Position numbers and translations under genes: made by a program. Shown piece by piece: positions 2,212 through 28,222 of a DNA stretch of 64,000 bases; the first letter of the stretch is position 1, and the number at the start of each line of letters is the position of its first letter. Source of the DNA: Clostridia bacterium (GTDB lineage: Bacteria; Bacillota; Clostridia; Oscillospirales; QAKW01); the NCBI GenBank assembly GCA_017436525.1, contig JAFSCX010000045.1, forward strand, positions 17,253-81,252. Reading direction: 5' to 3'. The notes below the pieces were generated by a model. It was given only the letters and a program-made list of their open reading frames with translations. It had not been told where the DNA came from and ran no database searches.

Positions 2212-5200
2212 TTATTTGCGCAGAAGCTGCTGCAATACCCAGGTTGCATCTGCAACGGTATATTGGCCATCGGATCCAAATGCACCGATCGTATCGTTCC
2301 ATACATCGGCAGCTTCATGCAAGGTAATATTCTCGCCGTTGGCTTTCCGAAGTATGCGGATTACATCGGCAAGGGTTACATTCTTATCGCCATTGGCGTC
2401 GCCCCAAGCATAGGCTGCCACATCGATCAGATTGACCCCGCCATCGAAAGAAATGACCTCAACATTCATCGAGCCATTCAGAATGGCGGAAGAATCATAG
2501 GGGCTTACAGTCATTACGCTCTTGCCGGCAGGAGCATTCTTTGCCACCTTGAAGGGAAGGGTTGCAAAATCACCCATGCCTTCCTCAATATTTTCCGCCC
2601 AGATAAAGGCAATCTTCAATTCACCCGGGTCATCACCGACCACCTTAATCTCATAGCCGGTTGCAACTGTGTTTTCATCATCAAAATCAAAGATCGCAGA
2701 ATCATATTCAATCTTCATGACCAAGGCGTTGCCGGGGGCGACGGGAATTCCTTTCAGATTCACCTTCACCTCTACCTGCTCACCGGCATGAACCAAAGGA
2801 GCAGAAAGGGTAACGGCTGCGCCGGTGAGTGCGGGAATCTCTCTGCTATTAAATCTTCCGCAAACACACTCTTGGCGCTCCTCACCTTTCACATCAAGGG
2901 CTGGTGCTTTTACAATTTCCCATGGACCGAAGGTACAGGAATCAAAGGTATCGCTGCCGCAACGGATGCAATAATGGCGATGCTCCAGCTTTTCATCAGC
3001 TAAGGAATAGCTATATTCGCAATTCTCAACCATACCGGAACCGCAAATACACTTAATAAGATGGCTGCCGTTATCCAATTTCTCTACCTGCGTATATTGG
3101 CATTTCTCTGTAAATTCTCTGCCGCAAGCGCAGTTTTCGGCATGGGTGCCATTCCCATGATCTGCCCATTCGCCATCATGGGTGCAAAGAACCGCTTCTT
3201 CGCCCTTCTTGCAAGCGGAGCAGAACCAGCTATGGGTGGAACCATCCTCATTCATTGTATAGGTAAGGGTGCCGGTATGTCTGCAGTCTACGGAAACAGC
3301 AATTTCCACATCGGTGCCCTGCATGGTCAGGATATGATTGAATTCGCCGCTGACCAAGGCCGATCCGCTTACAACTTCAATATCGGAAATATCGTAATTA
3401 TCAACCAACACCTCAAAAGCGGCATCTCCGTTGACATATCTCTCTTCCAACGTCTCCCCGCCCAGGGTGATGGTCAGCCTGCGTACTGCATTGTCTTTAT
3501 TACCGAATACCGTCATGCCTTCCTCGTTCATGGTCCAATAAACGGGAGCTAAATCGCCATGACGATAAAAATCATTGTTCATGGTATAAGCCATGAAGCC
3601 ATTATCATATTTCCGCCGAGCAAAAGAATGGGTTCTGCTGCACTCTACGATCGCAGCAGAAGGATGGCTTGCATAGCCATAGATCAAGTGCGTACCGATC
3701 GAATAAGTGTTTTGATAGGGAGTGCTTGCAGCCGTGGTCTGGCTCTGATAGCTGCCGCCCTGGCCGATGGCTGTATTATAGCCGGCAGAAGAGCCGGAAG
3801 CCAGCAGGTTATAGCAATTATAGAACCGACCGCCGCCGTTGGAAGCATAGGCGTTCAGGCCATGAACATACTCTTCATTACCGGATACGACACCGATATT
3901 ATAGCAACCATAAAGAATACCTGCACCGCGGCCCACAATACCGCCGATACGGGATCTTGCGCCCTTATTGCTTGCATTGACCGTAAGACCGTTCCAGCAA
4001 TTTGCAATCAAAGAGCCGCTATCGGCAACGCCCGCAAAAGCACCGATACCCTGATCCTGAGAGCAAACGTCTTTGATGTTAACCGTTCCGCTGGCAAGAC
4101 CAATATTCTGAATGACACCGGTGCCTAAGTGGGCCACCAAGCCAAAGCTATTATCGAAAACGGTAGTGCCGCTTTCTGTTGAGCCGAAGCCGTTGGGGTC
4201 TGTTTGGGTTATATTAAAGTTATAGAAATTATAACCATGGCCATCTACCAGACCGTTGAAGGTAGCGCCGTAAGCCAAGGGCCATACAGCCTCATTTTCC
4301 ATATCAATGTCCCCGGCCAGATGCAGCCGCAAAGCAGCAACATCCCGAGGCACCATCTCAGTGGCATAAATCCAATCTTCCTTGCTGCTGATCAGCCAAT
4401 CGGTGAAATGATAATCTGCCAATTCTTTATAGCGGGAAATGGAAGGCAGATAGGGATATTCTGCAGAAAGTTTGCCGTTGCCGATCGCCTCTTTTACAAT
4501 GTTGAAGGCGGCAACTGCCTCATAAATCGCAACGCACTTTTCATCATCACTCGCTACATTTTGAATCTTTACCAATGCATTGCGCAAATTCTCAATGCTT
4601 TCGCCGCCTGCTTCTCCGAAGGTATCCACCAAATCCTCCGCCTCGCCCAGATGGGAAGGATCGGGGCTCACCATGGAGTAGTTTACAGTGGTATAATCTT
4701 TATCCAAGACAACAACATCGGGAGTTTCGTTATCCAGCTCATATCCCGGCAATTTGGGCAACTCGCTCAGCTGATAAGAATCATTTTTATAGCGATAGAG
4801 GCGTTCGGGGGCACCATAAATCTCCCGCCCTCTGCCGAGGCCGGAAAAATCGTCCACATATCTTTGAAGCAGAAGCACAACCGGCTTCTCGCTCTCATCA
4901 AAGGAACGGGTCAATTTCGTCTTACCGTTCTTTCCGATGGTCCAGAATGCACCGTCATCCTCGCCCAGTTTCTGAGCGCTTTCGTTCATCTGATGAGCAA
5001 TTTCGATCTTATGGAAATCCTCAGAGGGAATGCGAAGCTGAAGCTCATCCTTTACCATCGGATTGTTTGCCTCGGTATTCGCCACTTTGCTTCCCTCGGG
5101 CGCAATCCAGAATACATTTTCATACTTTGAGGCGGTTACAGTTGCATTGGAAGAGCCAATTGCGCGCGCCACATAAAAAGCGTCATCGTGAACATAGGTT

Positions 5201-9390: not shown

Positions 9391-10275
9391 TTGAATAAAA
9401 AAGCTCTGGTTGTCATCAACCCTTATGCAGGGATGAAAAAATCCAAAAAGAATTTATTTGAAATTGTAGATCGCCTGAGCAAGGCGGGCTTTTCCATCAC
9501 CACCCAAACCACTACCGCCCCGAAAGACGGGACCCGCATGATTCGGGAGCTGGGAGCCGAGCAGGATCTTATTATTTGCTGCGGGGGCGACGGCACCCTC
9601 AACGAGGTTATCAACGGGGTTACCGAGGCAGGAATTTCTTGCCCCATCGGCTATGTGCCCGCAGGCACCACCAACGATTTTGCCCGCACCTTAAAGCTTC
9701 CCAAGCGGGCCGATCGCTGCATGGATTGGATTCTCAACGGCTACCCCCACGATTGCGATATCGGCTCCTTCAACGGCCGCAATTTTACCTATATTGCCTC
9801 TCTGGGCGCCTTTACCAAAGTCTCCTATTCCACACCCCAGAAGCTGAAAAACATATTAGGGCATACCGCCTATCTTCTGGAGGGAGTAAAAGAGGTAACC
9901 TCCCTCTCCCCTTTTCGCGCAGAAATTGCGGTAAACGGCCAGACCTATGAAGGAGATTTTCTCTTCGGCTCCATCTCCAATTCCACCTCCATCGGCGGGC
10001 TTTTCCGCTTAAACGGATTGGAAGTGCGGCTGGACGACGGAGAATTTGAGCTTTTCTTTATTCGCAACCCCAAAAGCCCCATCGATCTCAACCGCACCGT
10101 TCAGGCCATGGTCAAGGGCCGCTACGACCCCGCCTATATTATCTTCACCCACTGCCAAGAGGTCTCCATCCGCACCGAAAAGCCAATGCAATGGACCTTG
10201 GACGGTGAATCCGGCGGGCTGCAGACAGAGGTGCAGATCAAGGTGCAGCCCGATACCATCAAACTACTTTATTGA
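9391..10275 (+). CDS. diacylglycerol kinase family lipid kinase (DagK/YegS-like)
   Basis: GGDGTLNEV motif, VPAGTTNDFAR, and typical length of 294 aa. TTG start preceded by GGAGG. Confidence 0.8.
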   Translation: MNKKALVVINPYAGMKKSKKNLFEIVDRLSKAGFSITTQTTTAPKDGTRMIRELGAEQDLIICCGGDGTLNEVINGVTEAGISCPIGYVPAGTTNDFARTLKLPKRADRCMDWILNGYPHDCDIGSFNGRNFTYIASLGAFTKVSYSTPQKLKNILGHTAYLLEGVKEVTSLSPFRAEIAVNGQTYEGDFLFGSISNSTSIGGLFRLNGLEVRLDDGEFELFFIRNPKSPIDLNRTVQAMVKGRYDPAYIIFTHCQEVSIRTEKPMQWTLDGESGGLQTEVQIKVQPDTIKLLY

Positions 10276-10293
10276 TTTTTTCAAAAATAGTTT

Positions 10294-10326
10294 CCGCTGT
10301 CCTGTTTTTAGGACAGCGGTTTTCTT
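10294..10326 (+). terminator. rho-independent terminator after the lipid kinase gene
   Basis: Hairpin CCGCTGTCC-TGTTTTTA-GGACAGCGG followed by TTTTCTT. Confidence 0.7.
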
Positions 10327-10356
10327 ATAATGAACTCATCAAGAAAAGAAAAGGAG

Positions 10357-10521
10357 ATGAGTTCTGTGAATATTTTATGGTATCTTTTGGTTTGGGTGTT
10401 GTTTTTTGCCTGCGGGTTTGCCATCCATCAAGGCAAGGAAAATCGGCAGCTTCGCAAGGCTCTTGCAACCCCCTGCAAGGAAGAGCAAATTCCCCGCCGA
10501 TTCCGTTCAATTACCGTATAA
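10357..10521 (+). CDS. candidate small membrane protein (54 aa)
   Basis: AAAAGGAG RBS 4 nt before ATG 10357. Product is MSSVNILWYLLVWVLFFACGFAIHQGKENRQLRKALATPCKEEQIPRRFRSITV, with one hydrophobic helix and a basic tail. Its own hairpin terminator lies at 10526..10567. Confidence 0.45.
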   Translation: MSSVNILWYLLVWVLFFACGFAIHQGKENRQLRKALATPCKEEQIPRRFRSITV

Positions 10522-26794: not shown

Positions 26795-27352
26795 ATGCCC
26801 GCTATCCCAATCTTCGCCCAGATCCTCAGCATCATCGCCATGACCATCGCCCTGCTTTCCTTTCAGCAAAAGACGCAAAAGAGGATTGTACTTTTCCAAT
26901 TTTGCTCTTCCTTTCTCTTTGCAGTGCATTTTCTTTTATTGGGCGCCATCACCGGCGCACTCTTAAATTTCATGGCCGCAGGCCGTGCGCTGATCTATTC
27001 CAAGCGAGATCAAAAATGGGCCGCTTCCCCCTTTTGGATCCTTCTTTTTTCGATTCTGCCCTTTGGGATCTACGGCGCAAGCTTTGCCTTTTTCGGCATC
27101 GCGCCCACGCTTTCCAATCTTCTGCTGGAGCTGCTCCCCACCCTCGGCATGATCTCCACCACCATCTCCTTCCGGATGAAGCAAGCGGCGCAGGTGCGGC
27201 TGTTTTCCCTGATCAGCTCTCCCCTTTGGTTAATTTATAATATTTTTAATTTCTCCATCGGCGGGATCCTGACCGAAAGCTTTTCCTTAATTTCCATCTT
27301 GATCGGCATCCTGCGATTAGATCTTAAAAAAGAACAAAGAAAAAGCAGGTAA
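26795..27352 (+). CDS. YgjV family inner membrane protein
   Basis: MPAIPIFAQILSIIAMTIALLSFQQKTQKRIVLFQ... is a YgjV-like pattern. Start trimmed to ATG 26795 (AAGGAG RBS). The stop TAA lies inside the terminator stem. Confidence 0.65.
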   Translation: MPAIPIFAQILSIIAMTIALLSFQQKTQKRIVLFQFCSSFLFAVHFLLLGAITGALLNFMAAGRALIYSKRDQKWAASPFWILLFSILPFGIYGASFAFFGIAPTLSNLLLELLPTLGMISTTISFRMKQAAQVRLFSLISSPLWLIYNIFNFSIGGILTESFSLISILIGILRLDLKKEQRKSR

Positions 27353-27372
27353 CTTCGGTTACCTGCTTTTTT
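27344..27372 (+). terminator. terminator of the YgjV-like gene (hairpin H1)
   Basis: AGCAGGTAAC-TTCG-GTTACCTGCT followed by TTTTT. It has the same stem as H2 (27514..27537) and H3 (27684..27707), but the tetraloop is reverse-complemented. Confidence 0.7.
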
Positions 27373-27710
27373 GGTGATCCATCGGAGACTCGAACTCCGG
27401 CAATGCTCGCTTCGCGCCTTGCCGAAAAAATGGCCGACTCGTTCGCCGCTAAAGCGGCAACCACTCGCCATTGGCCAAAGGGTTCGGAGTTCTTTTGATT
27501 TTCATATTAAGAAAGCAGGTAACCGAAGTTACCTGCTTTTTTGGTGATCCATCGGAGACTCGAACTCCGGCAATGCTCGCTCCGCGCCTTGCCGAAAAAA
27601 TGGCCGACTCGTTCGCCGCTAAAGCGGCAACCACTCGCCATTGGCCAAAGGGTCCGGAGTTCTTTTGATTTTCATATTAAGAAAGCAGGTAACCGAAGTT
27701 ACCTGCTTTT
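27371..27710 (-). repeat. two tandem 170-bp units (27371..27540 and 27541..27710) downstream of tRNA-Lys, each carrying a copy of the tRNA 3' end
   Basis: Each unit holds an exact copy of the last 29 nt of tRNA-Lys (CCGGAGTTCGAGTCTCCGATGGATCACCA, minus strand). It also holds a GC-rich insert of about 110 nt that ends in an inverted 17-nt copy of tRNA positions ~38-54 (GAACTCCGGACCCTTTG), and a terminator hairpin. The units differ at 2 positions. Confidence 0.85.
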
Positions 27711-27711
27711 T

Positions 27712-27787
27712 TGGTGATCCATCGGAGACTCGAACTCCGGACCCTTTGATTAAAAGTCAAATGCTCTGCCAACTGAGCTAATGGATC
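27712..27787 (-). tRNA. tRNA-Lys (anticodon UUU)
   Basis: GATCCATTAGCTCAGTTGGCAGAGCATTTGACTTTTAATCAAAGGGTCCGGAGTTCGAGTCTCCGATGGATCACCA. Acceptor stem is GATCCAT/ATGGATC, the T-arm is CGGAG-TTCGAGT-CTCCG, the anticodon loop is CTTTTAA, and the CCA is encoded. Confidence 0.9.
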
Positions 27788-27811
27788 ATTGCTTTTGAAT
27801 AATGCTTGTTT

Positions 27812-27840
27812 ATTATACAAGGTAGTTTTTATTTTGTCAA
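27812..27840 (-). promoter_or_regulatory. consensus sigma-A promoter for tRNA-Lys
   Basis: TTGACA (27840..27835), 17-nt spacer, TATAAT (27817..27812), about 25 nt upstream of the tRNA 5' end. Confidence 0.7.
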
Positions 27841-27930
27841 GAAAAAAATAGAAATATTCCAAAGGGGTCATATGAATGGCCCACTTTCATTATTAAGGCA
27901 GAGAAAACAAAATGTTTTCTCTGCCTCTTT

Positions 27931-28134
27931 TTATTCATTATCAATGAATTCAGCAATATCCTCCAGCTTACAACCTAAAACCTTACATAGCTTATCTAAG
28001 GTTTTCGTCTCCATGTTTTCATTGGCTCTTAATCTACGGATCGTTTTACTGTCGATCCCGCATTTTTCCCGCAACCAATAGGTTGAAACTCCCTTTTGCT
28101 CCATTATCTTCCAAAGCCGATCAAATATAATCAC
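27931..28134 (-). CDS. XRE-family helix-turn-helix transcriptional regulator (short, HTH_26-like)
   Basis: ...IIFDRLWKIMEQKGVSTYWLREKCGIDSKTIRRLRANENMETKTLDKLCKVLGCKLEDIAEFI. GTG 28134 with an AGGAGG RBS is preferred over the ATG at 28155. Confidence 0.7.
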   Translation of the reverse strand: MIIFDRLWKIMEQKGVSTYWLREKCGIDSKTIRRLRANENMETKTLDKLCKVLGCKLEDIAEFIDNE

Positions 28135-28148
28135 TCTATAACCCCTCC

Positions 28149-28177
28149 TTGACATTTTTTATTATGGGGGTTATAAT
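28149..28177 (+). promoter_or_regulatory. consensus sigma-A promoter for the SLOG/DUF1273 gene, overlapping the 5' end of the XRE gene region
   Basis: TTGACA, 17-nt spacer, TATAAT. Inverted repeats bracket the -10: TATGGGG (28164..28170) with CCCCATA (28201..28207), and GGGGA-N5-TCCCC (28190..28204). Confidence 0.6.
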
Positions 28178-28222
28178 CTCAAATATTAAGGGGATATATT
28201 CCCCATATCGAGAGGTGATTAT

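Follow-up and report, generated by a model that had tools for sequence, protein, structure and literature searches.

Gene-less cis-mobilizable elements of 130–220 bp, termed microCIMEs, occur in Streptococcus salivarius, sometimes as two copies in tandem (Lao et al., 2020; PMC7563491). Both tRNA-Lys and the 3' end of rpsI are standard targets for the tyrosine integrases of integrative and mobilizable elements (IMEs) and integrative and conjugative elements (ICEs) in Firmicutes (PMC7563491). In Escherichia coli, the RtT repeats (rttR; Rfam RF00391) are 178-bp repeats of tyrT/tyrV (Bosl and Kersten, 1991, as cited through PMC4986893), and RtT RNAs have been reported as expressed products of the tRNA operon (PMC4986893). 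The function of RtT has been unclear for decades. Here, a 64,000-nt stretch of a Clostridia bacterium genome (assembly GCA_017436525.1, contig JAFSCX010000045.1, positions 17,253 to 81,252; hereafter the window) was analyzed, in which a tRNA-Lys(UUU) gene on the minus strand is followed by two tandem units of 170 bp. These units are probably tandem copies of a gene-less integrative micro-element of about 170 bp that is of the microCIME kind and belongs to a structured family. The source genome (G000) is a metagenome-type assembly of 1.75 Mb in 60 contigs; other G numbers denote its relatives, and C numbers denote contigs.

An earlier note, made from the letters of the window alone, had described a strongly promoted, intact tRNA-Lys(UUU) and two units of about 99% identity, each composed of a UUCG-loop terminator, a GC-rich segment, and a perfect copy of the final 29 nt of the tRNA. 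This description was borne out in all parts (Table 1). The tRNA gene is the only one in the window, and all 12 consensus positions of its promoter are matched. Tandem Repeats Finder (TRF) reported a period of 170 with 2.3 copies at 27342–27740, and the two units differ at two of 170 positions, both of which are G-to-A changes. On the minus strand, each unit consists of a terminator (T*), a spacer (S), an inverted target copy (I), a conserved hairpin (C), a variable hairpin (V), and the copy of the tRNA end, with C and V forming the GC-rich part of about 76 nt. The inverted segment that the earlier note had placed opposite the T-arm copy is I (GAACTCCGGACCCTTTG, 17 nt), which is a 100% reverse complement of 27732–27748 in the tRNA gene (tRNA positions 38–54); 69 nt separate the two arms, and the predicted fold recovers their pairing. 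The direct repeats bounding the units comprise 29 nt of the tRNA-Lys 3' end, or 59 nt when the terminator is included. The native terminator of the locus has the same stem as T* with the loop inverted to CGAA, and is common to tRNA-Lys and a convergent gene for a YgjV-like membrane protein that ends at 27352. It is the only one to pass a scan for strong U-tracts, the U-tracts of T* being weaker.

The units appear to be non-coding. Their only open reading frames (ORFs) span the repeats and lack conservation, and a coding remnant is disfavored because the stems covary and the lengths of V differ. A cmscan search of positions 27000–28200 against Rfam, with E-values up to 10, gave the tRNA as the sole match. 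As the earlier note had stated for the window, no integrase was detected; the contig of the window has no match to tyrosine recombinases, and no integrase or conjugation gene adjoins the units in G000. The part of the unit outside the tRNA copy has no further occurrence in the G000 genome. A diversity-generating retroelement (DGR) with variable and template repeats (VR/TR) was ruled out, since the contig has no reverse transcriptase and the repeats either match exactly or differ at positions other than A.

Comparison with relatives revealed an insertion/deletion polymorphism at this locus. In the closest relative, G005, a tRNA and promoter with 100% identity are followed directly by the CGAA-loop terminator, which is identical to the native terminator of G000, and by the same downstream sequence, such that the locus lacks the 340 bp of the two units. 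When these 340 bp are removed in silico from G000, the two genomes share 96.5% identity over 1128 nt across the junction. Other species of the genus carry different numbers of units. G008 has one unit at the syntenic locus, and G017 and G027 have at least two to three units, with contigs that break inside the arrays. G003 and G026 have one unit each, in which the first terminator is unlike the native second one (the stem in G003 is of the G000/G008 type) and the direct repeat is only the tRNA end of about 30 nt. This combination of a foreign terminator and a repeat limited to the tRNA end indicates horizontal arrival. Moreover, the variable loop of tRNA-Lys differs among species (AGGGTC, GGTTGTC, or GGTGTC), and I varies in step. 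The recurrence of this arrangement in assemblies made independently from other species puts the feature far outside what chance would produce.

The same module was found at six gene ends, namely those of tRNA-Lys(UUU), tRNA-Pro (UGG, CGG, and GGG), tRNA-Arg(CCG), and rpsI (last 30–34 nt). Beyond what the earlier note had recognized, the inverted tRNA piece is a general, target-matched feature. In all of the 23 elements compared, I lies just 5' of the hairpin foot and is the reverse complement of the local target, with a mean local score of 13.9 compared with 6.2 for shuffled segments. The geometry is constant among these elements. Relative to the hairpin, I matches the target between −110 and −84, across the left border of the direct repeat. 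Whichever gene is the target, one copy of this repeat begins near −96 (range −85 to −104) and the next between +27 and +39. In 11 tRNA-Lys elements, the repeat starts at CCGGAG|TTCG, and its start in the tRNA-Pro and tRNA-Arg elements is equivalent. When 21 elements were folded by minimum energy, nearly all gave a three-way junction, P1(I:O')/C/V, in which pairing of I with the first part of the gene-end copy downstream encloses hairpins C and V. V has no conserved sequence, yet it forms a hairpin, with a mean z of −3.1 and values below −1.5 in 20 of 23 elements. The rpsI loci occur in three states: occupied, with terminator and I only (G000 is among these), and with neither.

Two further features were observed at rpsI on contig C20 of G000 (approximately 10180–10430, outside the window). 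The loop of the rpsI terminator is interrupted by an insert of roughly 240 bp that resembles a miniature inverted-repeat transposable element (MITE) and carries GGGCACATTCGCAAAG / CTTTGTGAATGTGCCC as terminal inverted repeats. In addition, a solo inverted copy of the rpsI 3' end is present after the terminator, without hairpin C.

The GC-rich part, for which the earlier note had given no relatives, belongs to a large family of dispersed hairpins that is widespread in gut Clostridia and undescribed. The core pattern of hairpin C (GG-TTGCCGC-N4-GCGGCGA-G) is enriched in the taxonomic family of the source genome, with 25 matches compared with two for the reversed control. A covariance model (R1) was built from an alignment of 28 hairpins. 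Among 85 distinct R1 matches, 88.9% of the cells are paired (74.7% when shuffled), and compensated, double-sided changes occur in 199 cells, compared with 58 in shuffled alignments; none of 500 shuffles reached as high a count. Such double-sided changes affect 16 of the 18 pairs in hairpin C, and slid controls were all far lower. The hairpin top, which includes a U.G pair, does not vary, and G.T outnumbers A.C by 21:2 in the main helix (helix 2). This asymmetry, together with the invariant U.G, shows that hairpin C folds on one strand, which is the sense strand of the neighboring gene.

R1 matches are present in 33 of the 49 genomes of the family of the source genome, with up to 20 copies per genome that are often arranged in tandem with periods of 110–175 bp. 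Beyond the family, six of the 30 sampled families of the order have matches, and matches are sporadic elsewhere in the class (three of about 145 genomes). Among the matches listed in an exact-pattern scan of genome contigs, eight are real copies from Oscillospiraceae/Clostridiales, and most others are chance matches in GC-rich genomes. In a scan of metagenomes, no true copy of the hairpin was found among the matches listed, with 120 chance matches. No Rfam family matches any of the copy types.

Taken together with the folding and covariation checks that the earlier note had proposed (three-way junction, z = −3.5; covarying stems in hairpin C), these findings favor its suggestion of a miniature, non-autonomous integrative element, or a remnant thereof, that is present twice. 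The empty site in the closest relative, the foreign-terminator units elsewhere, the five other gene ends, the block starts at the T-stem/T-loop, and the described microCIMEs all support this reading. The search for related elements in relatives was positive, and the units are clearly not the random filler that the earlier note had considered as a refutation. In addition, the starts of the identity blocks at the T-stem/T-loop and the choice of tRNA-Lys and rpsI as targets, which are classic sites of tyrosine integrases in Firmicutes, support an integrative micro-element. In this reading, the order of the element is O (the replacement tRNA 3' end), T*, spacer, I, hairpin C, and hairpin V.

Table 1. 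Features of the tRNA-Lys locus in the window, followed by dispersed hairpin copies on other contigs of the source genome.
Feature	Coordinates	Strand	Remarks
tRNA-Lys promoter, TTGACA-17-TATAAT	27812–27840	-	12/12 consensus positions
Intact tRNA-Lys(UUU)	27712–27787	-	ARAGORN and Rfam, 71.9 bits
Identity block O, last 29 nt of tRNA-Lys	27712–27740	-	
Segment X of tRNA-Lys	27732–27748	-	Complementary to inverted copy I of the element
Unit 1, 170 bp	27542–27711	-	R1, 65.4 bits; three-way-junction fold, z −3.5
Unit 1, terminator T*, UUCG loop	27679–27711	-	
Unit 1, spacer S, 16 nt, A/T	27663–27678	-	
Unit 1, inverted target copy I	27646–27662	-	
Unit 1, conserved hairpin C, 47 nt	27600–27646	-	
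Unit 1, variable hairpin V, 29 nt	27571–27599	-	
Unit 1, tRNA 3'-end copy O', exact 29 nt	27542–27570	-	
Unit 2, 170 bp	27372–27541	-	Two G-to-A changes relative to unit 1
Unit 2, terminator T*	27509–27541	-	
Unit 2, inverted copy I	27476–27492	-	One mismatch
Unit 2, hairpin C	27430–27476	-	
Unit 2, hairpin V	27401–27429	-	
Unit 2, tRNA 3'-end copy O''	27372–27400	-	
Native terminator of the locus	27340–27371	-	Loop CGAA on the minus strand, UUCG on the plus strand
Type D copies (outside the window)	C5:8765–8825; C49:32192–32390; C3:44698–44758		TGGTATAAT boxes at both ends

For such an element, a free form that is probably circular and possibly single-stranded would recombine with the tRNA-Lys gene at the border between the T-stem and T-loop. 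The O and T* of the element would then complete the tRNA, and the chromosomal 3' end and native terminator would be displaced downstream. The second copy may have resulted from re-integration into the regenerated site, or from unequal crossing-over between the repeats of 59–70 bp. On the sense strand, I would pair with the start of the next O and close the three-way junction, which places a replica of the target duplex beside hairpin C. This replica and hairpin C may together be the structure recognized, as a folded single strand, by a putative enzyme that acts in trans. Given that the U-tracts of T* are weaker than that of the native terminator, transcripts that read through from the strong tRNA promoter are probably a source of RtT-like RNAs as well.

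More tentatively, the units may be part of a class of gene-less modules that spans phyla and whose integration is guided by structure and complementarity. In this doubtful proposal, a module would set its own target through an inverted copy of that target placed by a conserved hairpin, probably as a folded single strand, would be served by a trans-acting and possibly host-encoded enzyme, and would always carry a replacement gene end. RtT and the streptococcal microCIMEs would then be members of the same class.

Several observations weigh against an integrative micro-element. Loss from G005 through recombination between repeats would explain the polymorphism as well as gain in G000 would, and I could be native at the rpsI loci that keep terminator and I without C and V. 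No gene recurs as a neighbor, save the syntenic rplM/rpsI, when 767 ORFs from 74 loci were clustered. A comparison of nine tyrosine recombinases with 176 hairpin, tRNA-Lys, and rpsI loci (456 kb) gave a match only at G027, and the integrase of G027 was ruled out as the cognate enzyme, because its family is absent from G000, G008, G017, and G003. An origin from IS200 or from REP-associated tyrosine transposases (RAYTs) was likewise rejected, since Y1 transposases show no co-occurrence with copy number: G000, G004, and G017, which have seven to eight copies each, lack PF01797, which is present in G010, G012, and G013, which have none. Furthermore, the Y1 genes of G064 and G007 are not flanked by the hairpin. 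A link to reverse transcriptases was dismissed as well, given that G007 has 19 copies and no such gene, and that reverse transcriptases do not track copy number. Finally, no full-length relative was found in the limited collections of relatives, phages, plasmids, and viral contigs searched, and none of these phages, plasmids, and viral contigs carries the module.

The G027 integrase is encoded on contig C28 (L254:1303–2145) as a tyrosine recombinase of 280 aa, and the insert that bears it is joined inside the terminator loop of a unit. The unit array of G027 continues on another contig next to dGTPase–dnaG genes. Homologs of this integrase, with 55–87% identity, are present in nine of the 49 genomes. 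In the source genome, two Xer-like genes and two other recombinase fragments (PF00589 matches) are all located on other contigs, and no tRNA-Lys-like sequence was found near them. Two Xer-like genes are present in each of five genomes examined, with no link to the element sites. A tyrosine-recombinase fragment lies on the 3323-bp contig C36 of G000, which is probably circular given an overlap of about 150 bp between its ends. G000 has a single reverse-transcriptase gene (PF00078, 63 bits), at C38:28162–28764. No second copy of the tRNA-Lys 3' end that would mark a large island was found in five relatives.

Among the other explanations for these units, the one that survives best is a family of RNA genes like RtT, which is nonetheless unlikely; the earlier note had likewise suggested, as its second option, structured RNAs made by read-through. 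Transcription of such genes would start at the promoter of the tRNA or rpsI gene and read through into the unit, or, for the type D copies described below, start at a promoter of their own, and the transcript would be processed to a structured RNA of about 170 nt. The junction, hairpin C, and the complementarity to the 3' region of the parent gene would have a role at the RNA level, for instance in processing, stability, or the sponging of a factor, and the DNA would have spread by duplication or homologous recombination. The strand-specific covariation, with G.U far more common than A.C, fits this explanation, as do the weaker U-tracts of the unit terminators and a TGnTATAAT box that is located 5–7 nt before the hairpin foot in nearly all of the dispersed copies. 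Likewise, RtT of E. coli shares the architecture of the units; it is annotated as the small RNA RttR and was reported to be released from tRNA operon transcripts and to be visible on Northern blots (PMC4986893). However, an RNA gene leaves unexplained why each copy has a full replacement 3' end and the terminator of the target, why the terminators in G003 and G026 are foreign, and why identical elements are found in unrelated flanks. The absence of any Rfam family match also counts against it. An RNA role is compatible with mobility, and the two are not mutually exclusive.

The type D copies are a group of at least four hairpin copies of 138–147 bp on three other contigs of G000. Their left box faces outward and lies 10–50 nt before a leftward gene or tRNA, which suggests that it is probably the promoter of that gene. 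The copy on C3 (147 bp) is 98% identical to a copy in G005 that is located in unrelated flanks.

Somewhat harder to sustain is the possibility that the units are inert scars, left as decayed microCIMEs by ICEs, IMEs, or prophages that once resided at tRNA-Lys, with the second copy being a local duplication and the conserved hairpin and inverted copy being leftover arm sequences from a family of related attP sites. The described microCIMEs of 130–220 bp, including those with two in tandem, are indeed considered decayed elements (PMC7563491). Also in line with scars, tRNA-Lys is a hot spot: different inserts occupy it in other species, and the units in G027 lie beside an insert that bears an integrase. 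Bare copies of hairpin C are, in addition, found in phage-like contigs. However, independent decay would not give the same order and lengths (about 96, 47, and 30 nt) at six targets, nor would it maintain stems that covary and an I that matches its target in different families of the order. Moreover, a full-length parent was not found in the collections searched. It is very improbable that the repeat arose as an artefact of assembly, or through local slippage that duplicated the 3' region of the tRNA without relation to any element family: the assembly is of the metagenome type with 60 contigs and the contigs of several relatives break inside such arrays, but the two units differ by two single-nucleotide polymorphisms (SNPs), the loop of the third terminator is different, independent assemblies have one, two, or at least three units, and the same module is present at other genes.

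Some observations concern other elements at these sites. A second, unrelated family of small elements is present behind tRNA-Lys in other species of the genus, as tandem units of about 250 bp (loci L042, L051, L053–L057, L062, and L063; in L052 of G003 and L053 of G026, they come after the unit). These units open immediately behind the terminator, and their first part is the tRNA-Lys 3' end in inverted orientation (TGGTGATCC...CGAACC). After it come a hairpin formed by GAACC/GGTTC, GC-rich hairpins, and copies of part of the T-arm and of the terminator. In viral contigs, only the bare hairpin C was found, and the hairpin of the rpsI/tRNA-Pro type was not detected. For example, the IMG/VR contig L238 has a bare hairpin C at 3846–3905, antisense, between a DGR-type avd/reverse-transcriptase pair and a phage gene for a Hoc-like/tail-fibre protein, and the same hairpin with an identical score is present in L235, L240, and L249.

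If active, these units would be among the smallest known site-specific mobile elements, with about 170 bp and no gene, and would constitute a natural retargetable insertion system in which the choice of target is apparently encoded in the sequence of the element itself. If true, this explanation would also provide a testable account of the nature of the E. coli tyrT/RtT repeats and of the persistence of gene-less microCIMEs. In practical terms, the modules break metagenome assemblies at tRNA and rpsI loci and duplicate terminators and promoters. They may also alter the 3'-end processing of highly expressed genes.

Comparisons with known systems place the units between several types of elements. 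In IS608, the cleavage site is paired with a short guide that lies 5' to the foot of the hairpin, and the guides of the IS200/IS605 family are 4 nt and are not associated with long target repeats. The units resemble repetitive extragenic palindromic (REP)/RAYT and IS200/IS605 elements in being dispersed intergenic hairpins that often follow gene ends, and I pairs on paper like the IS608 guide. However, Y1 transposases do not co-occur with them, I has 13–20 nt rather than 4 nt, and the units have long target repeats. Integron attC sites and the attP(+) of CTX-phi are recombination sites that act as folded single strands, with fixed sequences for IntI or XerCD and one fixed target. As in these systems, the units have a conserved, strand-specific fold with a largely free sequence, a stem that mimics the target, tandem arrays, a regenerated target, and, presumably, an enzyme that acts in trans. 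In contrast, the mimic in the units changes across six targets and single-strand recombination is putative here; there is no R box or dif-like core at the six targets, and IntI was not specifically searched for.

For the tyrosine integrases that target tRNA genes, Williams is said to have described in 2002 a T-loop sublocation of attL/attR. The units are similar to the elements of such integrases in that the identity block extends from the T-stem/T-loop to CCA, the tRNA is restored, the 3' end is displaced downstream, and accretion is in tandem. They differ in having no integrase or other genes, the whole element being about the size of one attP.

The likeness to RtT is one of architecture. 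In the E. coli genome (NC_000913), tyrV is followed by three tandem units of 178 bp that each end in the tRNA-Tyr 3' end. Each of these units has a 22-nt inverted copy of the T-arm (86%), located 67 nt after the T-arm, compared with 69 nt in G000. This copy spans the repeat border and pairs with the next copy of the tRNA end around GC hairpins, one of which is GTTGCC-loop-GGCAAC. The units of G000 share this architecture, as they are tandem units of about 170–180 bp behind a tRNA, with the tRNA 3' end terminal and an inverted T-arm copy that closes the structure. However, no sequence or profile homology was detected (RF00391 against 27000–28200, E-values up to 10; R1 against E. coli), and the E. 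coli units belong to another phylum, have no terminator of their own, and have a predicted fold that is no better than shuffled sequences (z = −0.9).

The streptococcal microCIMEs differ from the units in that they are defined as decayed remnants of ICEs or IMEs, found in accretion with an ICE or IME and always distal to the target gene (PMC7563491). In G000, the units abut the tRNA, and no ICE, IME, or integrase is adjacent. Accretion with a mobilizing ICE or IME is thus not seen in G000, and only G027 has an integrase-bearing insert nearby. Moreover, the units have a covarying hairpin, an inverted copy matched to the target, and a fixed geometry; to our knowledge, a conserved hairpin, a target-matched inverted copy, and a fixed geometry have not been reported for microCIMEs. 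In other respects, the likeness is close: the units are gene-less, measure 170 bp, occur as two in tandem, and have direct repeats of a housekeeping gene's 3' end at their borders.

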